Assembly: GCA_963788655.1 (NCBI GenBank)
Contig: CAWBHS010000021.1
Coordinates: 1 to 52,155, forward strand
From: an uncultured Verrucomicrobiae bacterium
Lineage (GTDB): Bacteria > Verrucomicrobiota > Verrucomicrobiia > Limisphaerales > JAFGQR01
Direction of reading: 5' to 3'
Length of the DNA stretch: 52,155 nucleotides
Shown here: piece by piece, positions 5,461-52,155 of the stretch
Position numbering within the stretch: position 1 is the first letter of the stretch
How the letters are laid out: each line of letters begins with the position of its first letter
Position numbers and translations under genes: made by a program
The notes under the pieces: generated by a model
Database searches by the model: none
Seen by the model: only the letters and a program-made list of their open reading frames with translations
Told to the model about the DNA's origin: nothing

Positions 5461-7128
5461 ATGAAAATATTGCAATCCGTTCAGTACTTTATGGTAGGCG
5501 CTGCACTGGCCACAAGCCAACCGGCGATCGCTGCCCCCGCGGCCTTCGACACACCGCCGTCCACTCCGGGCCGCTACTTCGCCAAGAAAACCTACCAGCC
5601 CAAGCCCCTGCCCCAATTCGCCGAGACGCGAGACCAACTGCCCGCGCCGGTCTTGGCCGAGCATCCCGAGTGGGTGGCCATGTATTGGAAAGCCTGGGAA
5701 CTGGCCTTTAAGAATTTCCACGAGCCGGCGCCGGACAGCGGCTATGTCTCGCAGTTCATCGACGCGGCCTTCAACCAGAACATATTCCTTTGGGACACCT
5801 GCTTCCTGACGATGTTCTGCAACTACGGCTACCCGCTCGTCCCCGGGATTGGTTCGCTCGATAACTTCTACATTAAACAGCATGCGGATGGTGAAATCTG
5901 CCGCGAGATTAACCGCCAAACGGGGCGCGATTACGTCGAGTGGGTCAATCGCGAAGGCCAACCGATGTTCTCGCGCTGGGGTTGGGCGGGCGTGCGCAAT
6001 GATCCGGTCATTTACCAAGGCCGCGCCGTCCCCGATCCCGCGCCGCAGTTGACCCTGGACGCGCTGAACCATCCCATTTTCGCCTGGGCCGAACTGGAGA
6101 GCTACCGCGTCACCGGCAACCGGCAACGTTTGGCCTTGGTCTATGACCCGCTCGTTCACTATTACCGCGCCCTCCAGAAATATCTTCGCCAGGGCAACGG
6201 CCTGTACATGACTGATTGGGCGAGCATGGACAATTCCCCGCGCAATCCCTTCCTCAAGGGCGGTGGTTGCGCCGTGGACACGTCGAGCCAGATGGCGCTC
6301 TTCGCCCGCAACCTCGCCACCATTGCTGGCCGGTTGGACAAGTCGGAAGCGGCCCAGAGTTTTACCAGCGAAGCAGACGAATTGAGCCGTAAGATCAACG
6401 CGGCAATGTGGGATCCGGAGCGCCGCTTCTACTTTGACCTGACCCGCGACGGCAAGCGTGCCCCGGTGAAAACGGTTGCGGCCTTTTGGACGCTGATTGC
6501 CGGCGTGGCCTCGCCCGATCAGGTTGAAGCGCTGGTGGCTGAATTGAACAATCCCCGGACCTTCAAACGATTGCACCGCGTTCCTACCTTGGCGGCGGAC
6601 CAAACCGGCTACAATCCAGCCGGTGGCTACTGGTGTGGGGCCGTGTGGGCACCGACCACGACGATGGTCATCCGTGGATTGGAGCGGAACGAGCACCCTG
6701 GCCTCGCCCGCGAACTCGCGTTGAACCACCTCACTGTGATGGGCCGAGTGTTCCAGGCGACCGGCACCATCTGGGAAAACTACGCGCCGGATGCCGCAAA
6801 GCCGGGGCGCCCGGCCAAGGGCGACTTCGTAGGCTGGAGCGGCATTGGCCCCATCCTGTATCTGCTGGAATTTGGTGTTGGGCTGAAGCCGGACGCTGCC
6901 AACAATACTTTGGTTTGGGAAGTGAATTCATCCCGTGAGGTCGGCTGTGAACGCTTCCGTTTCAACGGCCACATCGTTTCGTTGAAGGCCGAAACAGATG
7001 CGGGTGACACCGGAAACGTGGTGGTGTCCGTGAACTCCAATGGCACCTTCAAACTGGAAATCCGACACGGCGGTCATTCCGAAATTTGTGATGTGAAATC
7101 CGGCCCCAATACCTTCAAGTTCCACTGA
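5461..7128 (+). CDS. Secreted (alpha/alpha)6-barrel glycoside hydrolase (GH63/MGH1/trehalase-like)
   Basis: ATG at 5461 followed by a signal peptide; IFLWDTCF, SMDNSPR, YWCGAVW, TIWENY and DFVGWSG motifs. Confidence 0.8.
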   Translation: MKILQSVQYFMVGAALATSQPAIAAPAAFDTPPSTPGRYFAKKTYQPKPLPQFAETRDQLPAPVLAEHPEWVAMYWKAWELAFKNFHEPAPDSGYVSQFIDAAFNQNIFLWDTCFLTMFCNYGYPLVPGIGSLDNFYIKQHADGEICREINRQTGRDYVEWVNREGQPMFSRWGWAGVRNDPVIYQGRAVPDPAPQLTLDALNHPIFAWAELESYRVTGNRQRLALVYDPLVHYYRALQKYLRQGNGLYMTDWASMDNSPRNPFLKGGGCAVDTSSQMALFARNLATIAGRLDKSEAAQSFTSEADELSRKINAAMWDPERRFYFDLTRDGKRAPVKTVAAFWTLIAGVASPDQVEALVAELNNPRTFKRLHRVPTLAADQTGYNPAGGYWCGAVWAPTTTMVIRGLERNEHPGLARELALNHLTVMGRVFQATGTIWENYAPDAAKPGRPAKGDFVGWSGIGPILYLLEFGVGLKPDAANNTLVWEVNSSREVGCERFRFNGHIVSLKAETDAGDTGNVVVSVNSNGTFKLEIRHGGHSEICDVKSGPNTFKFH

Positions 7129-38684: not shown

Positions 38685-40081
38685 ATGAAAACAGATCATG
38701 TAACCCTTCGAGGGTGTTCAAACAAACGTAGCAGCCGACGTAAGGAGGCTCATTCATCCTCTCCACTGAGCGGTTGGCCGACTCGATTTGAGCCGACTGA
38801 CGTCGGCTGCTACAACTTGGTCGGGTGGTGGAAACAGGCTCTCAATCCATGCATCAGATGCTTCACGGCGGTGCTGCTTTTCATCGGGGCAACGGCTCGG
38901 TCCGCCGACACCCCCACCCTCAAGGACGCTTACAAGGACTATTTCTACGTGGGCACGGCCATCAATCGCACCATCGCAACGGGCACCGCGTTCCGCTGGC
39001 GGAGCCAGGAACAGGTGGAGAAAGACATTGCCCTCGTCAAGGAACAGTTCAACCAGATTTCCCCGGAGAACGATCTGAAGTGGGCGCTCATCCATCCGCG
39101 GGATGGCGAGGATGGTTATAACTTCGAGCCGGCTGATGCTTTTGTGAATTTCGGCCTCAGCAACCACATGTATCTCGTGGGACATACGCTGGTCTGGCAC
39201 AGTCAGACTCCCTTCTGGATCTTCCAAGGGACCAATTTACCGCCGGGAGAAACGAATGCTTCCTCAGCCACCACGAACGCGGAGGGGACGAATGCGCGCC
39301 GCAGTGGCCGATTTGGCCGTGGTTTCGGACGCGGCGGTTTCACCGGGCCACGAGCATCCCGTGGAGAATTACTCGAACGGATGCGCGATCACATCCACAC
39401 CGTCGTCGGTCGCTACCAAGGCAAGATCAAGGCCTGGGATGTCGTCAACGAAGCCCTCGCCGACCGAGGCACGAATATCCTGCGGAACTCGCTCTGGTTG
39501 CAAATCATTGGCCCAGACTTCATCGCCAAAGCCTTCGAATATGCCCACGAGGCCGATCCAGACGCCATCCTTCGGTACAACGACTACGGGTTGGAGAATC
39601 CGGCCAAGCGCCGCAAACTCGTCACTTTGATCAAGTCCCTGCAGGAGCAAAAGGTTCCGGTCATGGCCATCGGTACGCAGGCCCACCTCAATGTTTCTGG
39701 CGCCAGCTTTGAGAACATGGACCAGGCCTTGACCGAGTTGGAAACCCTGGGATTGCCTATTCACATCACCGAGCTCGACATCAACAGCGCGCAGGGCGGC
39801 CAGCGCAATACCGGGGCGGACATCGCCAACAACGCCGCCGCCACCCAAGGCGGGTTGGTGGATGAAGCCAACCAGCGTTTAACCGAAGCATACCAGGAAT
39901 TTTCCGCGCCTTCGTGAAACACCAAGCCTCGGTCAAGGTCGTCACGTTCTGGGGCCCCAATGACGCGAACTCCTGGCGCCGCAATGGCAAACCGCTGTTG
40001 TTCGACGTCAACAGCCAGCCCAAACCGGCCTTTGATGCGGTCATCCGCGTCGCCACTGAAAAGCAGCCGGACTCGCGGTGA
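38685..40081 (+). CDS. GH10 endo-1,4-beta-xylanase (apparent frameshift near 39900)
   Basis: ISPENDLKW, GHTLVWHSQ, WDVVNEA, YNDY and IHITELD motifs; VTFWG…PLLFD…KPAF follow in the shifted frame. Confidence 0.9.
38728..38813. repeat. GTAG-type REP doublet, second copy, in the 5' region of GH10
   Basis: gtagcagccgacgtaaggaggctc…gagccgactgacgtcggctgctac. Confidence 0.85.
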
Positions 40082-40443
40082 TTTCTCAACGCACCGGCAA
40101 CACCTCAATATCAAATAAGGTGTTGAAACTCCCCGCCGCCGGTCATACCAACGGCGAGAGTGCTGTTTGAGTTCTTTCATGAACGCCGACCCATCCCTCC
40201 GTTCGACCATTGAGTACGAAAGTTTCTTCGCGCAAACGAAAAAGGACAGCGTCGTATTGGTCAGAGCGCGGTTCGCGTGGGTGACTGCCGCGCCAGCCCG
40301 CAGCACAGCGGCGACCCTGGCGGCTTCGCCGATTTTTGACTGTTGTCATTGGAGGCATTATCGAATCGCATGCACTGGTGAGTGCAAGGCAGTTGGGTTT
40401 CCCGGTCGAAGCGCCGGGCTTCGGCCGGGGTTTTCGCCTTGGA

Positions 40444-41003
40444 TTATTCGTGGTTCTGCCGGTAGAAGAAGTAATCGGCGAGGTAAGGCACTTCGGCAAC
40501 CTGCCCGACGAAGTCGCCGGCAACGGCAGGGGCCTTGCCGCCTTCGGTGTTGACCCGCTGGATGTAGGTGGTGTTGGCAAAGATGCCGGGACCTTCCGAG
40601 GTCAATTTTGTGAGCCGCAACCACGGGATGGCGTCGGGGTCCACGGTGATGCTCTTGGGCGGCAAGGCTCCCACCACCATGCTGCCACTGTTACTTTTCC
40701 ACGTGGGACCAGCGAAATGGGTTGCCACGACATTGCCTTCGTCATCATATAACGTGGCGTCGGGTACCGCCGCGCCCCAAGTGGAACCGTTCCAGGTGTA
40801 AATCTGCACCCCCACCCCAAGCCGTGGAAGTGAACCTTGTTGCCCTCCGGCACAGCGATCTCAACCGGAACCTCGGGAGCACGGTTGTCTTTGGCCGGGG
40901 CGGTTGCCGCAGAGGTAACTATCAGTCCGAGGCCAATCAAAGTGGGAAGCCATGCACTGCATTGCGTCCACCGACCTGTATTTCTGTTATGGTTTGTGTT
41001 CAT
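40444..41003 (-). CDS. Secreted DUF3455-like protein (apparent frameshift near 40815)
   Basis: Signal peptide; GVQIY…PDATL…HFAGPTW…AIPWL…YIQRVNTEGGKAP…VPYLADYFFY. Confidence 0.8.
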
Positions 41004-41115
41004 TGTCTATTTCTTGTTTGTTAATGAGTTGTTTCGTTTCTTGAACGCCCGCCCCAACTCTTCAGCGCGCGCCTGACGTTTCAACGTCTTCCAGTGTTAA
41101 CGTCCCCGGCGCAGT

Positions 41116-41766
41116 TCAATGCAACCGTGGACAATTTGTGATTCCGGCAGCGCCGAATTGTTCCCGGAGGTAGGCGGAACTTAAGTCCCATTCCTCGCTG
41201 CCGCGTTCAGGCATTAGGGCTGCCAACCGAGCCCGGCGGCCAGAAACCTCCGGTTGGGGGGATGAAACACGAACATCGCCTGACAATAGAATTTCCCGGA
41301 GCTGGGCGATGCCTCGGGCAATGCGCGACTTCACTGTGCCTATCGGTATGCCGAGGATTGCGGCGATGTCTTGGTAGGGGCAGTCTTCCAGATAGAACAG
41401 TGCCACCGCTGCCTGATAAACCTCGTCCACTTGGGCAAGCGCGGACAGCACCTGCGCCGAATCCACCTGATCGAACTGGAGCGGGGAGACCGCCGGCAAT
41501 TCGTCCGCGATGTTCTCCCAATGGTGGTGAATGTAACGGCATTGCCGGCGCCAACGGGCGAGGAACGCGTGGTGCAAGGTCGTGAACAGCCACGTCTTGA
41601 CCTTGGAACGGTCCCGCAGTTGATGCCCCTTCGTGGCCCAGACATAAAACGTTTGCTGGGTAAGGTCCCACGCGTCGGACTCCGCCCGAGTCAGGCTCAG
41701 CGCGAACCTGAAGAGCGGTTCGTAGTGCTGGCTGACGATTGTTTCGAACTGATCGGCTGCATTCAT
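41116..41766 (-). CDS. ECF RNA polymerase sigma factor with short C-terminal extension
   Basis: LFRFALSL…DAWDLTQQTF…VKTWLFTTL and YQDIAAILGIPIGTVKSRIARG. Confidence 0.9.
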   Translation of the reverse strand: MNAADQFETIVSQHYEPLFRFALSLTRAESDAWDLTQQTFYVWATKGHQLRDRSKVKTWLFTTLHHAFLARWRRQCRYIHHHWENIADELPAVSPLQFDQVDSAQVLSALAQVDEVYQAAVALFYLEDCPYQDIAAILGIPIGTVKSRIARGIAQLREILLSGDVRVSSPQPEVSGRRARLAALMPERGSEEWDLSSAYLREQFGAAGITNCPRLH

Positions 41767-41884
41767 AATTCGTTTGGTACTTCGCTGTCTCAACGATTGA
41801 GACTGCCATACTTCCCATGGGAAGCGGACCGGCACAATGGGACGAAGGAGCAGGCGGGGGAGCCCAAAGTTTGCAGTTTCCTGA

Positions 41885-41900
41885 TGGGGCGAAAGTCCCA
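41885..41900. promoter_or_regulatory. Dyad regulator box TGGGRC-N4-GYCCCA
   Basis: tggggc-gaaa-gtccca between the divergent ECF and RTX-like genes; near-identical boxes at 46998 and 49568. Confidence 0.65.
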
Positions 41901-41936
41901 TTGCGACTGCGCGACGCAACGGCAGAAACTGCGCCG

Positions 41937-43927
41937 ATGAAGTGCATTGAATTTCCTGCAGTCAATCGGTGGTGGTGGATCCTCGTCTTTAACGCTGCTT
42001 TTGCCCCGGCTGAGACGGCCTTGAGCACCACCGATCCTACCCTGGAGGTCCACTATGTCCGCACCGGCCAGAGCCTCATTTTGAGCTGGGCCAGCGCCGA
42101 GGCGGTGTCTTATCAAATCGAAGTGAGCTCAACGTTGATCACCTGGACCAACGTCAGCCCGGTCATGACCGGCACGGAATTACCGTTATCCTTCACCAAT
42201 TCCATGATCGGCCAAAGCAGGCAATTGTTTCGGGTTAAGCGAGTGTTTCCCGCTGCTCCCGGTTCAGCGGTGTTCAATCCTGTAACGAGTCTGTTGACCA
42301 TTGTTGGCGATGCCTTGCACCCCGTGATCAACGTCGCGAACGACGGTGCGGGGGTGATCCTTGTGAACGGTGGAGCAATTCCAGTTACCGGTGGTGTGGC
42401 CACGGTCGCCAATACGGTTCTCATCCAGGTCCTAGGCTCGACGGGCAGCGATCAGCTTACCGTGGGCAACTCCTTGCCCCCCCCGCCCATCTGTTTGGTG
42501 AGGCAGGCGATGACATCATCATGGGCGGGAGCGGCAACGACTTGATTGTCGGCGGTCCCGGCCAGGATACCCTTGCGGGCCGGCAAGGCAGCGATCGCAT
42601 TTATCCCGACGGGGACGATACGGTCGTTTGGAACCCGGGCGACGGCAGCGACGTGGTGGAGGGGCGGGGCGCAAACAACACTTTGGTTTTCAATGGCGCG
42701 AATGTTAGCGAACACTTCGACCTTTCCGCGAACGGCTCGCGTCTGCGGCTTACCCGCGACGTGGCAGCGGTTACCCTCGACGTGAACGGTGTGCAAACGG
42801 TGGACATCATAACGCTGGGCGGTGCGGACAACGTGACCGTCAACAGTCTGTCCGGTACTGCCGTCACTCAGGTCAACGTGGATCTCGCGGCGACCGGCGG
42901 GGCCGGCGATGGGCAACCTGATACGGTCGCGCTCAACGGGACCGCCGGGCCGGACACCTTCAACCTTGCCGCCAACGGAAGTGCAATTGAGGCGGCTGAC
43001 CTGGGCACGCTCGTGCGTGTCGCCAATGCGGAATTGGCCAATGACCGGGTCGTTGTCAACGGAGTCGGCGGGGACACGGTAAACGCGAATGGCACCGCGG
43101 GACTCGATACCATGCAGCTTCTTCCGTCACCAGTGACTGGTTACGCCCGGGTGAATATCTCGAGTTCCGCGCCGCCGATCGATGTGATCGGCGCGCTGAC
43201 GCTAGCCGTCAACGGACTGGGCGGCACCGACACGATCGTCGCCGGCAATGGCCTCGCGGCTCTGGGCATTCCGCTGGTATTGGACGGCGGTGACGACGAC
43301 GACTTCATCGCGGGCGGCGATGCCGCCGAAACCATTATCGGTGGCCCCGGCAACGACACGGTGAGCGGCGGTCGCGGCAACGACGTCATCTTGCTGGGCA
43401 ATGGAAATGACACCTGCACGTGGAATCCCGGTGACGGGAGCGACACCATCGAGGGGCAACTCGGCAACGACACCCTGGTTTTCAACGGCGCGAATGTTAG
43501 CGAACATTTCGACCTTTCCGCGAATGGCTCGCGTCTGCGGCTTTTCCGGGACGTGGCCAACGTCATCCTCGACGCTAACGGCCTGGAGACGGTCAACATT
43601 CAAGCCTTGGGCGGTGCGGACAATGTGACGGTCAACAGTCTGGCTGGCACCTCCGTCACCCAGGTCAACGTTGATCTCGCGGCTACGGGCGGGACGGGTG
43701 ATAGCCAGCCGGACACGGTCACCATCAACGGAACAGAGGCGTCGGACAAGATCGACCTCACCGCCAACGCCGGTACCGTCGTGGCCACTGGCTTGGCGGC
43801 TCAGGTGCAAATTACTCATCCCGAGGTGGCCCTTGACACCCTCATCGTCAATGGACTCGGAGGCATCGATTCGTTTGGTCTCGGACCCGTCGTGACCACC
43901 CTGATCGCGGTCATCCTCAATCAGTGA
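41937..43927 (+). CDS. Secreted RTX/hemolysin-type Ca-binding repeat protein (frameshift in the C-run near 42480)
   Basis: GGSGND, GGPGQD, GGPGND and GGRGND nonapeptides; ~110-aa internal duplication WNPGDGSD…FNGANVSEHFDLSANGSRLRL…TQVNVDLAATGG. Confidence 0.85.
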
Positions 43928-43979
43928 CAAGCCGCCACGGCTCAGTTCCTTAATCGCCGACGCTTCGGGATATGAGTTT

Positions 43980-45365
43980 TCATTCCGGCCGGATGTTTTG
44001 ATTTAGCCGGAAGAAATTCCCCGGATCGTAGGTCTGCTTGATCTGGGCGAGGCGCGCATAGTTCGAACCGAAGGCCGACTTCACCCGATCGGTTTCCTCG
44101 GCGGTGAGAAAGTTCGAGTAGGCACCGCCGGTCGCGAACGGGAGGGTGGCCCGATAAACCTCCCGCGCCCAGGCGATGCCGGCCTGGTCTTCGGCGGGCG
44201 AGTTCCAGCGGCCATGCACGTTCATCACGAAATTGGCGTCGCGATTGCCAAAGGCGGTCGCGTCCGCGGCCACACGCCCAACCTGCCCGCCGAGTTGAGC
44301 AAGGAAGAGCTCACAGTGAGGCGAGGGTAATTCCCCGGCAAAATCCACGAGCGTGTTGAGCAATCCATCCTTCAGTTCGAGAAAATTGTGTGACTTCCAA
44401 TAGTTGCGCGCTCCCGGAGTGAGCAATGGATCGAAGGCCTGCTGCCAGGCTGTGAACGGCTGCATGCCGACGTGCTGGCCCAGGACCTTTCCAAATTCCG
44501 CCAGCGGCGCGATGAATTTCCGGCCGTTTTCCTCTGCGCCCAGATAACAGAGAGCCAGCACCAGGATATCCTGTCCATGCACTTCCGGAGGAAGAAACGG
44601 CAGGGGCGGCGCTTTTCGCATCACGATCCATACGCTCAAGTCTTCCGGCGCCGTGGCGACGAACGCCCGGTATTTCCGCAGCACCTTTCCAGCTTCCGCG
44701 TGAGGAAACACAATCAAGCCGCTCAAAACCTCCGGCCCGACCGGATGCAGAGCAAACTCAAACTCCGTGACCACGCCAAAATTTCCACCGCCACCCCGCA
44801 AGGCCCAAAACAGATCCGGATGCGACGTCCCGCTGGCCTGAAGACATTTTGCCTCTGCGGTGACAACGCGGGCGGAAACGAGGTTGTCGGAGGTGAGCCC
44901 GAGTTTGCGGCTTAACCAGCCGAACCCGCCGCCGAGGGCAAGGCCGGCGATTCCGGTGGTGGAGTTGATTCCGGTCGGCGTGGCGAGGCCATGGGCCTGA
45001 GTCGCGCGATCCACATCGCCCAGCGTTGCGCCGGGTTGCACGTAAGCCCGGCGGGCCGGCGCGTCCACCCGGACCTCCTTCATGGTGGAAAGGTCAATCA
45101 TCAAGCCGCCGTCGCACACGGCATGACCGGCGATGTTGTGGCCGCCGCCACGAATGGCGACGATAAGCTCGTTTTCGCGGGCATACTTGACGGCGTACAT
45201 CACGTCGCCCTCGGTGCGGCAACACACAATGAGGGCCGGCTTGCGGTCAATCATGCCGTTCCAGATCGAGCGGGCTTCGTTGTAGTTGGAATCGCCCGGC
45301 AGAATGAGAGTTCCGTCGAGGCGCTGTTTCAAGCGGGTGATGTCGTTTAAGGTGGCAGTTGTCAT
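43980..45365 (-). CDS. FAD-binding oxidoreductase with berberine-bridge-enzyme (BBE) domain
   Basis: RGGGHN, LGGGFGWL, DLFWALRGGGGNFGVVT and IKQTYDPGNFF motifs. Confidence 0.93.
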   Translation of the reverse strand: MTTATLNDITRLKQRLDGTLILPGDSNYNEARSIWNGMIDRKPALIVCCRTEGDVMYAVKYARENELIVAIRGGGHNIAGHAVCDGGLMIDLSTMKEVRVDAPARRAYVQPGATLGDVDRATQAHGLATPTGINSTTGIAGLALGGGFGWLSRKLGLTSDNLVSARVVTAEAKCLQASGTSHPDLFWALRGGGGNFGVVTEFEFALHPVGPEVLSGLIVFPHAEAGKVLRKYRAFVATAPEDLSVWIVMRKAPPLPFLPPEVHGQDILVLALCYLGAEENGRKFIAPLAEFGKVLGQHVGMQPFTAWQQAFDPLLTPGARNYWKSHNFLELKDGLLNTLVDFAGELPSPHCELFLAQLGGQVGRVAADATAFGNRDANFVMNVHGRWNSPAEDQAGIAWAREVYRATLPFATGGAYSNFLTAEETDRVKSAFGSNYARLAQIKQTYDPGNFFRLNQNIRPE

Positions 45366-45409
45366 ATTCGTATTCTTTCTTGGTAACGGTGTGTTTCTTT
45401 TTCAGTCGG

Positions 45410-46390
45410 TTACGCGCTTCGCACAGTGACCACTTCCAGATACTCGGCGGCGACTTCGGTCGTGTCATGCCTTCCGGCGGTGTTGTTGGCGATGTGAAGC
45501 TCCACCAGATCCCGCCGCAGCGCGGCCTGGGCGGGAGCATCGAGCGAGGCGAAGGCCCGTTGCGTTGGGCCGTAATATTGGCGGAAGAACTCCACCGTTT
45601 CCGCAGGTGGAAATGGGTAGCGTATCATGGCAATGCGGCGCGTGAGGCGCACGGAACTGAAGCCGTGCTGTAATCGCGAACGCACGGTGGCTACATCGCC
45701 CCAGCCCATTGGCGATGGAACCCCGGCGGGCGGTGGCGGCAGGTGCACTTTGAAGACCTTGAACATCTTCCCGATGAAACCTTCGGGCGTCCAGTTGGCT
45801 AAAGCGATCACTCCGCGGGGTTTGGTCACCCGCCGGAGCTCGGCGACAGCGATGTCGGGTTGCGGGGTGAACATGACGCCGAATATGCTTACGGCGAGAT
45901 CGAATTGGTTGTCCTGGTAGGGCATTGCCTCGGCATCACCTTCTTTGAAATCAACGCGCAAAGCTTCAGCAGCCGCGCGGGCGCGGGCCTGAACGATGAG
46001 GTTCGTTGCGATGTCGATGCCGCTGACCTCGCAACCACGCCGGGCTGCAATAAGCGCGAGATTCCCGGTGCCGCACGCCACGTCGAGAACCTTCGCGCCG
46101 GGCCGGAGCGGTAGCCGCGCCATAAACTCTTCGGCAACGTGTTCAATGCTGCGGGCGACTTGTCCGAAGTCGCCGGACTCCCAGGTCGTCTTCTGCTGTG
46201 CTTTGACGGCTGGGAGGTTGGGGACGGGGGTAGATGCAACACTGGGGTTCAGGTCGGATCCGCGGCTTGAGCGGTCATGGCCTTTAGCCCAACCGCGAGA
46301 GTTCCGGTTTAGCTCAAGCAGGGTGATAGGCTTTGACGCCAAGTGACTGCCAGTGATGTTCATCGGTGTCAGATTCTCTTTGGCATGCAT
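45410..46390 (-). CDS. Class I SAM-dependent methyltransferase
   Basis: VLDVACGTGN, GDAEAMPY, SIFGVMF and ANWTPEGF motifs; start uncertain. Confidence 0.9.
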   Translation of the reverse strand: MHAKENLTPMNITGSHLASKPITLLELNRNSRGWAKGHDRSSRGSDLNPSVASTPVPNLPAVKAQQKTTWESGDFGQVARSIEHVAEEFMARLPLRPGAKVLDVACGTGNLALIAARRGCEVSGIDIATNLIVQARARAAAEALRVDFKEGDAEAMPYQDNQFDLAVSIFGVMFTPQPDIAVAELRRVTKPRGVIALANWTPEGFIGKMFKVFKVHLPPPPAGVPSPMGWGDVATVRSRLQHGFSSVRLTRRIAMIRYPFPPAETVEFFRQYYGPTQRAFASLDAPAQAALRRDLVELHIANNTAGRHDTTEVAAEYLEVVTVRSA

Positions 46391-46443
46391 AGGTTTGGTT
46401 TGTTTGTGTTTTTGAATTTGCTGTCAGGGGATGGTCCGGAGTT

Positions 46444-46902
46444 TCAATGCTTCGGGGTGACCTTGCCGGTGTAGGACTGGGCGACGATCTTGCCGTCGCG
46501 CACGACGAAGGTGTCCGTGCCCAATTCGTAAACGTTGTCGGCGGTCTCCGCGGTCCACAGAATGTAAGCGCAATTGTCCTCGATAAACTGATGCTTCATG
46601 TTGAATGCGGGGCCCGGTTTTCCGAACTCCGCAATCATCGCTTGAAAGAATGGCCGGATCTCGTCCGCTCCCCGCAGCGGTCCGTTTGAGGTGAACAGGA
46701 CGGCACCCGGCGCATAGTCTGAAAGGACGCCCTTCAGATCGCCCTCCATGAAACTCTTCAAGTGATGGTCGATAGCGTCTTTTGTCGAAGTCATTTCGCG
46801 GTTGTCCTTGGTTGGTTGTGGTTCTTTAGTTTCAGAAACCAGCGTTCGTTGAGTTGTATGTTTCGCGGCGAGATTTGGCCGAGCGATAAGAGTCGATTTC
46901 AT
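46444..46902 (-). CDS. SnoaL/NTF2-like protein
   Basis: HHLKSF…DYAPGAVL…GTDTFVVRDGKIVAQ; alternative start at MTSTK. Confidence 0.82.
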   Translation of the reverse strand: MKSTLIARPNLAAKHTTQRTLVSETKEPQPTKDNREMTSTKDAIDHHLKSFMEGDLKGVLSDYAPGAVLFTSNGPLRGADEIRPFFQAMIAEFGKPGPAFNMKHQFIEDNCAYILWTAETADNVYELGTDTFVVRDGKIVAQSYTGKVTPKH

Positions 46903-46997
46903 ATGTGTTCACTTTCATTGTTGAGTTAATGCCGCGGTCAAACGCGACCGTGGCACCTATGTGAGTCCAACCGCGCTGCCTGGTTCCAACCGGGCAC

Positions 46998-47013
46998 TGG
47001 GACTAAAGCCCCA
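46998..47013. promoter_or_regulatory. Dyad regulator box
   Basis: tgggac-taaa-gcccca about 95 bp upstream of the SnoaL-methyltransferase-oxidase operon. Confidence 0.65.
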
Positions 47014-47235
47014 TTCCGAGTATCCGTGTTTAGGGGAGTTGAAATCTGACCCATGGCCGCCGATTCGCCGGTTGTCCCTCCAGCGCGCCAGCAGCCTTCG
47101 CCAAAGCATTCTAAAAAGGTTCTTCACGAGGGAACTGGCATGACTCTGTGTCGTCACTCCTCATCCGGTTTGGCTGCGAGATGGAGAAGTGTTCGCGCGT
47201 TTGGCATGGTTCGCGGTTCATTTCATCCAGCTTCA

Positions 47236-49521
47236 TTACGGCTCAGTAACGAGCACCACGCGGAAGCCGATGATGAAGTCGCTGATGAATGGGTGTGCCC
47301 CTTCAAACCAACGGCTGGCGGAGCGGCAATCGAACTCAGACGCTTCCCATGCTCCGCCGCGAATAACCTTCCAGCCAATCGGATTATCCGCCGGCCCTTG
47401 CGGATCGGTTACGGAGCCGCCCGGGTAATCGCCATACCAATCCTGGCACCATTCCCAAACATTCCCCGCCATGTCATACAGTCCCCAGGCGTTCGGCAGT
47501 TTCTGTCCGACCGGGTGCGTCGTAATACCATTGTGGGCGCCAAACCACGCGTAGTTGCTCAAGCCGGTGAGGTCGGAGTCGTCACCGTAATAAAAGCGAT
47601 TCGTCGTACCTGCGCGCGCGGCGCATTCCCACTCCGCTTCGGTCGGGAGCCGATAGTGGCTGCCGGATGGAATTCGTCCTGCCGCCTGGTCCTGGGCGGT
47701 GAGCAGGAAGCAGTAATTGGAGGTCGCGAAGAAAGACACGCTTTCGACCGGACGATTCAGATCACCCGGAAAGCCGCTGGGATTTTCACCCGTGACGGCG
47801 AGGTATTCCGCCTGAGTCACTTCATGTTTCCCGATCCAAAATCCATGCGTGAGCGTCACAACGGTTTGCGGTCCCTCATCGGCCTGGTGGCCGACTTCAC
47901 TTTCGGGACTGCCCATCGTGAATGCGTTGGGCGGAATGAACACCATGTTCACGGGTGGAGTTTGCAACACCACGCGGTAAGACTTTTGCGGGGAAGCATT
48001 GGCCGTTGCATCTAGAAAGTTGACAGCCCCAAGCGTGTTGTTCACCACTCTTACCGCATTCCAGGTCGTGAGATTTGTCGAGTCCAGAACCGTGTAAACC
48101 CCGGGCGGTCCGGTGATGCCGAATTTGAATGCGCCGTTCAACGGGAGCAGGTTGACTAACTGGACGGTCAATGGATACGTGTACACTTGGACGCCCAGAT
48201 TGCGGATGGACGGAAGTTCTGCCGCCAGATTCGTCTCCGCCAAGAACCCGGGCAAAACCAGCGTGGTCAGCGGATTGCCGACGTAGCCAAGCGCACCCAA
48301 CCCGTTCAAGTCCGGGGGCAACGTGATGGTCGTGAGTTGATTCCCGCTGAGGTAAAGCCCGGACAGATTCGTCAGACCCGCAGGGACGGTAAAGCTGCTG
48401 AGCAGATTGTCGCTGAGGTCGAGCGACACCAAATGACCCAGATCCGCAGGCAACCCGACGTTGGTAAACTGATTGCCACCGAGAAACAGCGCGGTCAAAT
48501 TGGTCAGCCCCGGCGGCAGGGCGAAACGGGTGAATTGATTTCCAGAGAGAGCGAGAATGGACAGCTGACTGGATCCCGCCGGCAGAGTGACACTGGTGAG
48601 TTGATTTGTGCTCAGATCGAGATAGGTCAGCTTGGTCAAATCCGCGGGCAGATTGAAGTTGGTGAGCAGGTTGGACCGCAGATGGAGGAAGACCAATCCG
48701 GAAAGATTCGGGGGCAAATTGAGACTGGTGAACTGATTGTGATCGAGGTCCAGGCTGATCAAGTTTCGCAGATCAGCTGGCAGGTTCAGGTTCGCAAGCT
48801 GATTGGAGGAAAGGTCGAGCACGTGCAGGTTCGTCACGCCGGCAGGCAAGGTGAAGCTGGTGAGTTGATTTTGGTCGAGGTAAAGTTGGGTCAACCGGGT
48901 CAGGCCGGTCGGCAGAGTGAAATTCGTGAGGGAGTTTTCGCTCAAGCGGAGCAGATCCAGATTCGTCAGTCCGTTGGGCAGGGAGACGTTGGTAAGGGCA
49001 TTGAACCCGAGGTCGAGCACGCCCAGGCCGGTCAGACCGGGCGGCAGGGTGAAACTGGTGAGTTGATCGCCCTGGAGATCAAGCTCCTCCAGTTGGGTCA
49101 GGCCCGCTGGCAGCGCGAGTTGGGTCAGCGGGTTGTTCCCGATGAGGAGTGAAAACAATTTCGTCATGCCGCCGGACAGAGAGACGTTGGTGAGCGCATT
49201 TATGCTGAGATTGAGCGACACCAGATTCGTCAACGTGGGAAGCGAGAAATTGGTGAGGTGATTGGAGAACAGCAGGAGCGTGTTCAAATTGCGAGCCGCC
49301 TCCAGTCCGGCAAGGTTGCTGATATTCCGGTCATGGGCATTCAGCACGGTCAACCCGAGCATGTCCTGTTGGGTCAATGGCCCGACTGGCTTGCCGAGTG
49401 TCTCGCGGATGGCGGCGTTCAAGCCGGGATCAGGAAGGGACACCTCTTGCGCGTGGGCCGAAATCATGAGGCCGATCGCGATCAGCGTCCGGACGAGGTA
49501 ATTGATAGTGTTCATGTTCAT
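47236..49521 (-). CDS. Secreted leucine-rich-repeat protein with C-terminal FGE-sulfatase (SUMF1, C-type-lectin fold) domain
   Basis: Internalin-like cap PDPGLNAAIR; many 21-aa LRRs (LTxLxLxxNQLTSFTLP); RLPTEAEWE, PNAWGLYDMAGNVWEW and IGFRVV; GAGG RBS before ATG 49521. Confidence 0.9.
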   Translation of the reverse strand: MNMNTINYLVRTLIAIGLMISAHAQEVSLPDPGLNAAIRETLGKPVGPLTQQDMLGLTVLNAHDRNISNLAGLEAARNLNTLLLFSNHLTNFSLPTLTNLVSLNLSINALTNVSLSGGMTKLFSLLIGNNPLTQLALPAGLTQLEELDLQGDQLTSFTLPPGLTGLGVLDLGFNALTNVSLPNGLTNLDLLRLSENSLTNFTLPTGLTRLTQLYLDQNQLTSFTLPAGVTNLHVLDLSSNQLANLNLPADLRNLISLDLDHNQFTSLNLPPNLSGLVFLHLRSNLLTNFNLPADLTKLTYLDLSTNQLTSVTLPAGSSQLSILALSGNQFTRFALPPGLTNLTALFLGGNQFTNVGLPADLGHLVSLDLSDNLLSSFTVPAGLTNLSGLYLSGNQLTTITLPPDLNGLGALGYVGNPLTTLVLPGFLAETNLAAELPSIRNLGVQVYTYPLTVQLVNLLPLNGAFKFGITGPPGVYTVLDSTNLTTWNAVRVVNNTLGAVNFLDATANASPQKSYRVVLQTPPVNMVFIPPNAFTMGSPESEVGHQADEGPQTVVTLTHGFWIGKHEVTQAEYLAVTGENPSGFPGDLNRPVESVSFFATSNYCFLLTAQDQAAGRIPSGSHYRLPTEAEWECAARAGTTNRFYYGDDSDLTGLSNYAWFGAHNGITTHPVGQKLPNAWGLYDMAGNVWEWCQDWYGDYPGGSVTDPQGPADNPIGWKVIRGGAWEASEFDCRSASRWFEGAHPFISDFIIGFRVVLVTEP

Positions 49522-49567
49522 CACCTCGTTGGAGCCTTGAGTGAGGAATCGGTTCCCCAAAACCGAG

Positions 49568-49583
49568 TGGGACGAAAGCCCCA
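49568..49583. promoter_or_regulatory. Dyad regulator box
   Basis: tgggac-gaaa-gcccca between the divergent LRR-FGE and TlpA genes. Confidence 0.65.
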
Positions 49584-49689
49584 GTGCGTCCGAACGGACG
49601 TGGAAGCATACTGACACCGTGTTCGAGAGCCTGTCCGAGTGAGCGCCGACACCATTTGGTTGTATGGAAAAACTGATCAAACGACTATC

Positions 49690-50927
49690 ATGAAAAAAAC
49701 CTGGAACGTCCTACTCGCACTGGCCTGTGCTCCTTTCATCGTGTCGGCAGGCGAGACAACCGCACCGAAGCCGGGTGAACCGCCACCTCCATTTGGGCTT
49801 GAGTCAACATTGCAAGCGCCCCGTGGCGCCCAGCCGAGTTGGAAGGCGCTCAAGGGTAAAGTGGTCGTCCTGGAGTTTTGGGCAACCTGGTGCGGACCTT
49901 GCATCGCGGCGATACCCCATCTGAATGAATTGGCGGATAAATTCAAAGACGAGCCGGTTCAATTCATCGCCATTACCGATCAAGACGAAACGGTTGTCAG
50001 GCCGTTCTTGCGCAAAAAGCCGATGCACGCCTGGATCGGTTTTGGACACCGACAGGTCGATGTTCAAAGATTTCGGGATCAAGGGCATCCCGCACACGGT
50101 GGTGGTGACCAAAACGGGATTATTGCGGCAATCACTTATCCGACCTACTTAGCCGAGCAACAGTTGAAATACCTGCTGGCTGGCAAGCAGATGACCCTCG
50201 CGCAACGCGGAACCGAAGGCGGCCTGTTCCCGGGACAGGTGCCTGCCATTTCGAAGCGGGAGCGAGAACCGCTCTTTCAGGTAATCATTCGTCCGAGCAC
50301 AGGTGGGCCCATGACTTCCTCCTCGAGCCAAGGCGGCCTTACTGCATCTCGGGTAACCATCTTGAACATTCTTTCTTCCAGCTCCGGCATCAGTCCGTTT
50401 GCGGATCTTCACCGATTCGGCCCTGCCAGAAGGAGACTTCGATTTTATCATCAAAACGCCCGATACCGAAAACGAAAAGGTTCAGACCTGGCTGCGGCAA
50501 GCGGTGGAATCGACGTTCAGGCGTCAGTGCCCGCTATAGAGACCAGCGAAATGGACGCCTTCGTTCTCAAGCCAGGCCAACCCACTGAACATCTAACCCC
50601 GACGGTTGCAACCGGAAGTTCTTCCCTGAGCTCGGGCGGCGGAAGCCTGAACTGCGTGAATCAATCCATGACTTCCCTGGCCTCGAGCCTGGAGGAGATT
50701 TAGAAAAAACCTGTTATCGATGAAACCCGCCTCACAAATCGCTATGATTTTCAGCTCCTGTGGAATATGGAAACATTGGGGAAACGGATCCGATCAAGTT
50801 GGCCGGGGCATTGCGTGGACAGCTCGGCTTGGAACTGGCACCGGCGAGGCGGGCAGTCGAAGTGCTTAAGGTAACCGTGGCGAATCGCCAGGCCGGCCCA
50901 TCAGGAAATAGGATTCAAGGTCCATGA
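49690..50927 (+). CDS. TlpA/redoxin domain fused to TIGR03435-like domain (several frameshifts and an in-frame TAG; may be a pseudogene)
   Basis: VVVLEFWATWCGPC; after the TAG at 50701 the frame reads KKPVIDETRLTNRYDFQLLW, and ALRGQLGLELAP follows in another frame. Confidence 0.72.
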
Positions 50928-51164
50928 GAACGACGCTGAAGAATCTGTTGGTCGTAATGCCCAACCCGTTTCGGGCCGTCATGTCTGGCTATAATCATCC
51001 CCGTGAGAGTGCTGAGTCAGGCGTTGGCTCCCCTAATCGAATGGGACTCAAGATTTGGGGCGCGAAGAACTCCGGCCGCGATTTGTAACGAAAGAGGATT
51101 GCCGCACGGCTAATGCGGTTTATGATATGGATTAATTGGGCGTGAAGCGTCCCAGACACACATT

Positions 51165-52155
51165 ATGAAATCATCCGTGCCGGACCTTAAGTGGGACGAA
51201 AGTGGCAGTGCACTCGAACCGTTTCTCAAGCACACTGATGGCGTGTTCGAAAAACTCTTTGAGCTCAGCGCGGACGCCATCTGGTTGTATGATCCCCGGA
51301 CTGCGGAACTGGTGGATTGCAATCAGGCGGCGGTCGAACTCATTGGCGCGGAGAGCAAGCAGCAATTGTTGCGCACGCGGCCCGAAGACCTGTCCCCACC
51401 GATGCAACCGGACGGAGCGTCTTCGGCCGGCAAGGCGGCGGAGATTATCGCCACCGTCGAAAGGGAAAAGCGGCATTGCTTCGAATGGCTGATGCGGCGC
51501 CTGGATGGCCGGGAAGTTCCCCTCGAGGTTTCCTCGACCGCGCTGTTCATGAACGGAAAGAGGATCCATGTCCTTATGTCCCGGGACATCCGCGAGCGCA
51601 AAAAAGCCGAGCGTGCATTGCTTGAACTGACTCACGCCCTGGAAATGCGGGTGGCCGAACGCACGGCCGCGCTCAGCACCAGCGAAGCGCGCTTTCGCGC
51701 CCTGGTGGAACATGCGTCGGAAGCCATTGTCGTTTTCAACGGAGACACCGGACAATTTCTCTTCGGCAACGAACACGCGTGCCGGCTTTACGGGGTACCG
51801 ATGGAAAAACTGGCGACCCTGACTCCCGCCGATGTCAGCCCTGAATTTCAACCGAGTGGACGACGCTCCGGCGAGCTTGCCCGCGAGTAGATGGCCGAAG
51901 CCCTGACCGGAGGCATGCCGGTTTTCGAATGGATCCACCAACAGCCCAATGGCCGGCTGATTCCCACCGAAGTGCGGCTATTGCGCCTGCCCGCGGAAGG
52001 CCGGAATTTGATTCGCGCCAGCATCATTGACAATACGGAGCACAAACGCGCCGAGCGGGCGCTGCGCGAATCGGAAGAGAAGTTTCGCGCGCTCTTCGAA
52101 GGGTCCAGCCACGGCGTAGTCCTCCACGACGAGAATGAACTGCTGGAGGTGAACC
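51165..52155 (+). CDS. Multi-PAS sensor protein, probably a histidine kinase (in-frame TAG at 51888; runs off the window)
   Basis: PAS repeats (NQAAVEL…SPPMQPDG…FEW…RDIRERK), LEMRVAERT coiled coil and SEARFRALVE. After the TAG the frame continues MAEALTGGMPVFEWIHQQPNGRLIPTEVRL…ESEEKFRALFE. Confidence 0.8.

Follow-up and report, generated by a model that had tools for sequence, protein, structure and literature searches.

The 52,155-nucleotide stretch analysed here (the window) is the whole of contig C21 in the 115-contig, 8.96-Mb source assembly (G000; 59.6% G+C) of an uncultured Verrucomicrobiae bacterium. It contains, between 40 and 52 kb, a gene island in which a recurring 16-bp palindrome had been noticed. 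The original prediction took this palindrome for a DosR-like box that places the island under a PAS-domain sensor kinase and a NarL-type response regulator. Our analysis of the window and its relatives indicates that the dyad TGGGRC-(T/G)WWA-GYCCCA is probably the operator of a dimeric NarL/LuxR-type regulator encoded after the multi-PAS kinase, and that this operator has been fused to promoters of the extracytoplasmic function (ECF) sigma factor type. Order-wide searches covered 301 genomes, and kinase neighbourhoods of 13-19 kb each were collected from 12 relatives; relatives' loci are denoted by L-numbers (for example L037) and genomes by G-numbers.

The dyad TGGGRC-N4-GYCCCA was found exactly at 41885, 46998 and 49568, with the sequences first quoted for these sites, as against a mean of 0.01 in dinucleotide shuffles, none of 100 of which reached three copies. 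The whole 8.96-Mb genome holds four exact dyads, three of them within a 7.7-kb stretch of the island, which bears out the earlier claim of a local regulon signal. The fourth, at C72:391283, has a GCCC spacer, and the genome-wide search found dyads with a (G/T)AAA spacer in the island only. Sites with at most one mismatch lie in the island or less than 10 kb from it in three of five cases in the source genome, two of three in G131 and two of two in G136. The first 40 kb of the window, where the motif had gone unnoticed, contain no site at this level, and the sole 2-mismatch site to the strict consensus there is at 6740, with a GAGT spacer. When two mismatches were allowed the window was not enriched (14 found versus 12.6 expected), so that 41175 and 51192, both 2-mismatch copies, need support of another kind; some 100 nt of flank are common to 41175 and 46998, and 41175 carries the full composite promoter described below. 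For the genome-wide regulon search, sites with at most one mismatch or with a composite promoter were used, the search at two mismatches being uninformative. A search of 60 relatives for the dyad gave three matches, two of them at codons 10-15 of PAS histidine kinases homologous to that of the window. The motif core equals the published consensus core of the DosR box, as had been stated; 46998 reads GGGACTAAAGCCCC, which agrees with 13 of the 14 positions of that core, and relatives include TGGGACTTAAGTCCCA (L068). Both 41885 and 46998 are non-coding, since in the frame of the kinase box a stop precedes the former and lies inside the latter, and the likeness of 41885 to kinase 5' ends stops 5 nt past the box. 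These two boxes are therefore free-standing DNA elements and not gene relics.

In most cases the box proved to be half of a larger signal, and not the whole of it as first proposed, with ECF-type -35 and -10 elements placed 10 nt downstream. For this tally, 23 non-kinase boxes were picked by the box alone (at most two mismatches) from the window and the 12 relatives' kinase neighbourhoods. Fifteen of them share one arrangement in one orientation, namely the box, exactly 10 nt (11 at 49568), GGAAC, 18 nt and TC[ACT][ACGT]A, often with an ATG or GTG 3-5 nt further on. GGAAC followed by a short -10 is the classic form of an ECF promoter, and GGAAC-N18-TC[ACT][ACGT]A was counted at 21 distinct sites. 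The composite promoters of the window are:

41137-41190, minus strand: composite promoter of the DUF3455 gene; box 41175-41190, N10, GGAAC 41160-41164, N18, TCACA 41137-41141
46960-47013, minus strand: composite promoter of the SnoaL-methyltransferase-BBE oxidase operon; box 46998-47013, N10, GGAAC 46983-46987, N18, TCACA 46960-46964
49529-49583, minus strand: composite promoter of the LRR-FGE gene; box 49568-49583, N11, GGAAC 49552-49556, N18, TCCAA 49529-49533, with ATG 49521 7 nt on
51004-51057, minus strand: decayed composite promoter with no gene behind it now; half box 51042-51057, N10, GGAGC 51027-51031, N18, TCTCA 51004-51008

Across the order, WAGTCCCA-N10-GGAAC-N18-TC gave 15 matches in 10 of the 301 genomes, compared to one match for the reversed control. 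All 15 keep the left half-site, which lies outside the search pattern, with at most two mismatches in six positions (chance about 0.04 per site). Nine of these ten genomes are among the 25 that encode an island-type PAS kinase at E<=1e-40; the ten span ten families, which are kin and so not independent. A looser search of the source genome for a half-site plus GGAAC was not specific (66 matches versus 46-66 at control spacings). In relatives, composite promoters precede LRR or LRR-FGE genes (L039, L042 with two sites, L041, L047 and L054), SnoaL (L056), DUF3455 plus RTX (L068) and RTX (L039), as well as genes for ydhR, CMD and DUF2231-cytochrome c proteins and several open reading frames (ORFs) with no significant Pfam family. 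The decayed half-site at 51042 lies 150 nt from the kinase box, and in L039 the LRR promoter box and the kinase box are 152 nt apart. We infer that 51042 is the decayed original LRR-FGE promoter, left behind by an intergenic duplication, with the redoxin gene then coming to lie between the copies. The box itself was also considered as an ECF -35 element on both strands and was rejected, as a separate GGAAC stands at the fixed distance of 10 nt and is absent at the kinase-type and ECF-upstream boxes.

Two boxes stand upstream of the ECF gene of the island:

41885-41900, no strand assigned: box 1, full dyad TGGGGCGAAAGTCCCA, exact match, between the ECF gene (minus strand) and the RTX-like gene (plus strand)
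41838-41853, minus strand: box 2, half-site GCTCCTTCGTCCCATTGTG, about 77 nt upstream of the ECF start codon

The boxes are conserved upstream of orthologues, box 1 in L038 and the block around box 2 in L037, L038 and L043. ECF orthologues in the same neighbourhood of L037, L038, L039 and L043 are 53-69% identical to that of the window. At the position of GGAAC the sequence upstream of the ECF gene reads CCGCT or TCGCT (window, L038), and ECF-type autoregulation was not seen there, so that transcription of the ECF gene seems to depend on the box-binding protein and not on the ECF factor itself. In L039 the ECF gene lies directly downstream of LRR-FGE on the same strand, behind the LRR-FGE composite promoter. 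A further box falls within the 3' end of the ECF gene in the window (41175) and in L037, L038 and L039, which explains the conserved ECF tail E-W-D/G-L/F-S...GAA. These C-terminal tails (EEWDLSS...REQFGAA; window 41119-41200, L038, L039) overlap the operator, -35 and spacer of the downstream gene, and coding and promoter constraint are inseparable there. Genes for ECF, LRR-FGE, SnoaL, a methyltransferase of the same type and RTX recur beside the kinase-regulator pair in L037-L039, L042 and L043. Among NCBIfam models the ECF protein passes only the generic sigma70-ECF superfamily, its equivalog matches falling below cut-off.

With the first 150 residues of one box-bearing relative's kinase as query, homologues were found in 96 of the 301 genomes at E<=1e-15 and in 25 at E<=1e-40; the window's kinase is 63% identical to residues 20-354 of the L048 kinase. 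Relatives' kinases that were scanned (L038, L040, L041, L047) combine multiple PAS domains with HisKA (PF00512) and HATPase_c, and contain neither GAF nor HisKA_3. In NCBIfam the kinase passes only the PAS domain model, with equivalog matches below cut-off. Two of the sites that had been read as plain upstream boxes, 51192 and 49568, lie instead in the kinase coding sequence and in a duplicated fragment of it:

51192-51207, plus strand: kinase-type box TGGGACGAAAGTGGCA, codons 10-15 of the PAS kinase; -10-like CACACT 51231-51236, GTG 51243
49541-49665, plus strand: decayed PAS kinase 5' fragment, reading EWDESPSA...KHTDTVFESLSE up to a stop codon and then SADTIWLYG in another frame; CATACT 49607-49612, GTG 49619

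The fragment matches 51192 and the kinase 5' ends of L003 and L004 at 72-79% identity over about 100 nt, and keeps the kinase-type promoter geometry, pointing at the redoxin/TlpA-like gene (ATG 49690). The claim that every named transcription unit has a box near its 5' end was confirmed. Among the weaker copies listed with it, 41175 has a composite promoter, 51192 is a kinase-type box and 41838 a conserved half-site, and 51042 is reduced to a decayed half-site.

All 15 full kinase 5' ends contain YGGGACGAAAG-NN-CCAGTGC, which translates as W/R-D-E-S/R-x-S-A. Conservation at codon positions 1/2/3 is 0.90/0.96/0.90 in the box plus 5 nt, 0.81/0.88/0.69 in the PAS domain and 0.67/0.69/0.44 in the 30 nt that precede the box. 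All 15 sequences use only GAC for Asp and only GAA for Glu, and the AG dinucleotide is retained in Ser/Arg swaps. The conservation of the kinase box is at the nucleotide level. An in-frame ATG precedes the box in all 15, at 27 nt (8 sequences), 30 nt (6) or 12 nt (1), and the kinase-box region is therefore very probably translated too. When one genome per species was searched (185,579 species), the kinase-type pattern gave 44 matches in 43 loci, of which 20 matches in 19 loci had a PAS context. Fourteen of the 19 loci are labelled Verrucomicrobiota, two of these Limisphaerales, and five carry other labels. These five box-bearing 5' ends come from records labelled Limnocylindria, Limnocylindrales, Bifidobacteriaceae, Haliangiales and Bathyarchaeota (L070, L075, L088, L101, L104); their peptides closely resemble those labelled Verrucomicrobiota, and mis-binned contigs are likely. 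In all 20 PAS-context matches the hexamer at +40 to +45 is NANNNT (GATAAT, CATAAT, GACAAT, CATACT, CACACT and similar), with its final T on a wobble position, and an ATG or GTG stands at +52, just before the Phe that opens the PAS domain. Read as a promoter, this geometry would place a -10 element 7 nt ahead of a leaderless start and the centre of the box at -43.5. Such an internal promoter is possible, though we stop short of calling it probable, and a roadblock or repressor role of the kinase box fits the data equally well. Upstream of the ATG of the long ORF, a sigma-70-like TTGCCG-16-TATGAT (51099-51126) could be the basal kinase promoter; matches of this kind occur at chance level (4 found, 2.9 expected).

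The original prediction had placed a NarL-type regulator just past 52155. In relatives this is its position, as the ORF after the kinase encodes a regulator with REC and GerE/LuxR-type domains in all nine loci scanned. Kinase and regulator of the relatives share one operon, with a box at its 5' end. The window's contig ends at 52155 inside the kinase, short of the place that the regulator takes in relatives, and the regulator was not found in this assembly. The recognition helix, TESTVKKHVQE, is identical in seven of eight regulators from different genomes, the eighth reading SEATVKKHVLE (L046), which matches the conservation of the DNA motif. Among solved LuxR-type domains that match the regulator's DNA-binding domain, DosR chains rank 13th and lower (E 3e-6 to 1.8e-5), and no DosR-specific model is among the 25 NCBIfam families listed for the regulator, all of which are below cut-offs.

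From these observations a circuit can be proposed. The phosphorylated regulator would bind the boxes upstream of the island's ECF gene, and binding would induce the ECF gene rather than repress it. ECF-RNA polymerase would then read GGAAC-N18-TCnnA before the DUF3455 gene, the SnoaL-methyltransferase-BBE oxidase operon and LRR-FGE, and in relatives before RTX too, so that the island's ECF would probably act as a second, obligatory regulator. At these promoters the box, centred near -51.5 from the predicted start, stands 10 nt ahead of the -35; both factors would probably be needed, which would amount to a feed-forward AND gate. Many target transcripts are predicted to start at the start codon or a few bases from it. 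The kinase box, centred 43.5 nt before the RTG that opens the first PAS domain, may autoregulate the kinase-regulator operon, from an internal leaderless promoter. We put forward more tentatively, and as less likely than not, a hard-wired two-key promoter evolved in the order, in which the box is locked 10 bp upstream of the ECF -35, the regulator would touch ECF-RNA polymerase and the mRNAs would be leaderless. In this proposal the operator would be overprinted on coding DNA (the WDESPS kinase N-terminus and the EWDLSS...FGAA ECF C-terminus), and the internal kinase promoter would yield an induced, N-terminally shortened isoform, unlike the basal one from 51099-51126.

Four other explanations of the dyad were weighed. 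It might be the operator of another dimeric factor, for example of the CRP/FNR type, or of a repressor unrelated to the kinase-linked regulator. CRP/FNR-type sites share the 5-N4-5 geometry, which alone cannot discriminate between families; moreover, DosR resembles the regulator's DNA-binding domain no more closely than NarL or VraR do, and in the source assembly the three boxes are intact with the cognate regulator missing. Nevertheless, we regard this explanation as unlikely: no second DNA-binding gene was seen repeatedly across the neighbourhoods examined, genomes with the composite motif tend to be those with this kinase, and a box at the kinase-regulator operon in 15 of 15 homologues is the usual signature of autoregulation. 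That the island corresponds by orthology to the mycobacterial DosRS hypoxia/redox regulon we consider quite unlikely. GAF and HisKA_3 are missing from the sensors, the NCBIfam families listed for the regulator include no DosR-specific model, and nothing in the DevR promoter classes of the passages cited below corresponds to the ECF partner or to leaderless composite promoters. These points stand against an identical motif core, a regulator from the same NarL/LuxR superfamily and the presence of redox enzymes (BBE/FAD oxidase, redoxin) among the predicted targets.

The boxes might also be by-products of coding, left as duplicated kinase 5' remnants or as codons of conserved peptides (W-D-E-S-P-S; E-W-D-L-S-S) with no regulatory role. 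Such an origin would suit 51192 and the relatives' boxes, which are in frame as W/R-D-E-S/R-x-S, as well as 49568, embedded in the decayed kinase fragment, and 41175, which reads as WDLSS in an ECF tail that is kept in L038 and L039. It does not account for third codon positions in the box that are as conserved as the others, for the retained AG and the invariant GAC and GAA codons, or for 41885 and 46998, which are non-coding, the kinase similarity of 41885 ending 5 nt after the box; nor does coding explain the fixed N10-GGAAC partner. This origin is very improbable. That the dyad acts as RNA, as a hairpin with a GAAA tetraloop serving as terminator, attenuator or stability element, we find scarcely credible, even though on the plus strand 41885 can fold into a 6-bp stem capped by a GAAA loop and a scan flagged 49583-49568 (minus strand) as terminator-like. 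The box of a composite promoter precedes the -35 and is hence outside the regulated transcript, which argues against an RNA role. Compensatory changes were not seen; the left half of the kinase box is invariant and the right half varies (GTGGCA, GTGCCA, GACCCA, GGACTA), and many sites read TGGGTC...GTCCCA. No Rfam family was found in 40000-52155 at E<=1, and terminator-like matches are fewer than in shuffles (6 versus 12.5). Two further candidates were set aside, a hammerhead-like CTGATG...GAAA at 41879, which is a single copy without stem II, and a recoding or frameshift site at GGGACGAAAG, which has no slippery heptamer.

Several observations weigh against the proposed operator and circuit. 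The regulator was not found in the source assembly, where the best match is a broken copy on contig C38 without a DNA-binding domain; in that copy the kinase has lost an internal segment, and the regulator is interrupted by two TGA stops and lacks the helix-turn-helix. Outside this copy, nothing in the source genome matches the regulator's DNA-binding domain better than 47% over 58 residues. The reading frame of the window's kinase is interrupted by a TAG at 51888-51890, a codon that is Trp in the C38 paralogue (LAREW...), and this may mean that the circuit is inactive here or that the assembly is faulty. With no regulator gene in the assembly and a stop codon in the kinase, it is uncertain whether the circuit is active in the source genome. 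Among the sequencing runs listed for the region, one soil-metagenome DNA run shared 0.06 of the sampled words, and there was no RNA run. The genome-wide enrichment seen with exact dyads, three of four in the island, is lost at two mismatches, where boxes equal the reversed control in the source genome (49 versus 49) and are rarer than it in G136 (24 versus 45). The GGAAC partner is absent from 8 of the 23 non-kinase boxes. At the kinase box, the upstream in-frame ATG and the coding periodicity of the preceding codons fit a repressor or roadblock as well as an internal promoter. The argument that the island's own ECF, and not another ECF sigma of the genome, would read GGAAC-N18-TCnnA is one of synteny. 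Finally, the relatives are kin, and counts taken from them overstate independence.

The gene map of the island was checked by Pfam, which agreed with the gene calls first made (DUF3455, ECF, RTX, BBE oxidase, methyltransferase, SnoaL, LRR-FGE, redoxin and PAS):

41003-40444, minus strand: DUF3455 gene (Pfam), split over two frames
41119-41766, minus strand, ATG 41766: ECF sigma factor gene, 216 amino acids (Pfam Sigma70_r2, r4_2); its 3' end holds the next gene's promoter
41937-43927, plus strand, ATG 41937: unknown ORF and RTX protein (Pfam), split at a poly-C run
45365-43983, minus strand: BBE/FAD oxidase (Pfam)
46390-45413, minus strand: methyltransferase (Pfam)
46902-46447, minus strand: SnoaL_2 (Pfam)
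49521-47239, minus strand, ATG 49521: LRR-FGE (Pfam)
49690-50700, plus strand, ATG 49690: redoxin/TlpA-like gene (Pfam)
51165-52155, plus strand, cut by the contig end: multi-PAS sensor kinase (Pfam PAS domains only), first 330 codons

The RTX-like gene is broken at a run of eight C near 42.48 kb (41937-42545 and 42521-43927), which looks like a frameshift, as does the split in DUF3455 at 40.6-40.8 kb. The same gene contains a 300-nt internal duplication (42629-43720), with copies 792 nt apart and 79% identical, and the LRR gene has twelve copies of a 66-nt (or 132-nt) periodic repeat at 48311-49271. Right after the -10 of five composite promoters, two in the window (46929-46953, minus strand, and 41107-41131) and one each in L037, L056 and L057, a conserved leader was found (GTGCCACGGTCRC...TTGA..GCGG). 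It can fold into a hairpin of 7-8 bp, with G-C to G-U changes in L037, and may be a 5' RNA element of SnoaL/ydhR-type transcripts. A second, degraded copy of the module lies on C38 at about 95.9-100.5 kb (L049). Besides the broken kinase and regulator it holds an FGE fragment, an ECF paralogue (99957-100466, 65% identical) and, at 100487, a complete composite promoter, TGGGGCTTTAGTGCCA-N10-GGAAC-N18-TCACA. A third ECF paralogue (57% identical, 397083-397559) was found on C72, 6-8 kb from the 391283 dyad and a 2-mismatch box at 389670, and no composite promoter was seen in the region from 389.6 to 397.6 kb.

In Mycobacterium tuberculosis the DosR/DevR consensus is TTSGGGACTWWAGTCCCSAA, with the core GGGAC-TWWA-GTCCC; the C-terminal dimer of DevR contacts GGGACT in each half, and in one studied promoter sites lie at -42.5 and -63.5, the former activating (PMC2275270, PMC3177182). 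The base contacts of DosR are made by Lys179, Lys182 and Asn183 of the recognition helix (PMC5861037). As described in these passages, DosR/DevR and the present system are alike in the palindromic core, in a dimer of a NarL/LuxR-family regulator as binder (here predicted), and in boxes that occupy divergent intergenic regions and the regulator's own operon; the activating site near -42.5 is comparable to the -43.5 inferred for the kinase-type box. The systems differ in the sensor, which here is multi-PAS plus HisKA versus GAF/HisKA_3, and in that most targets here pair the box, at a constant spacing of 10 nt, with an ECF-type promoter. Unlike in DosR/DevR, some of the boxes also lie within coding sequence, and the phylum is different. 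In FixL/FixJ-type systems, a PAS sensor with HisKA and HATPase_c and a regulator with REC and a LuxR-type helix-turn-helix switch on a second-tier transcription factor. Their domain architecture is closer to that of the island than the architecture of DosRS, whereas the second tier here is an ECF sigma versus the CRP/FNR-type FixK, and the operators differ in sequence. Here no PAS domain was identified as haem-binding. At algD of Pseudomonas aeruginosa, AlgU acts with AlgR/AlgB, and in the CseBC-sigE system of Streptomyces a two-component system controls an ECF gene. These cases are alike in that a two-component regulator controls, or co-activates with, an ECF sigma. The present system differs from them in one palindrome set a near-invariant 10 nt from the -35 across many families of a single order, with transcripts that are predicted to be frequently leaderless. 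Full-text searches of the literature found no description of a fixed 10-nt fusion of palindrome and ECF promoter, or of such a regulon in Verrucomicrobia.

Taken together, these results probably define a conserved, previously undescribed regulon grammar of soil Verrucomicrobia, in which the logic of a response regulator plus an ECF sigma is itself already known. Next to nothing is known of transcriptional wiring in soil Verrucomicrobiota, most of which are uncultured, and the analysis supplies a defined operator together with a promoter grammar and a candidate pair of regulator and sigma factor. It would tie poorly characterized secreted proteins (LRR-FGE, RTX, DUF3455) and enzymes acting on small molecules (SnoaL, methyltransferase, BBE oxidase) into one co-regulated module, which narrows the hypotheses on their function. 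For annotators, it is a caution that a 'peptide motif' conserved at the end of a gene may be a signal in the DNA. More generally, the island would provide a natural example of a fixed-geometry promoter that requires a response regulator together with an ECF sigma factor, and of codons constrained by regulatory sites.

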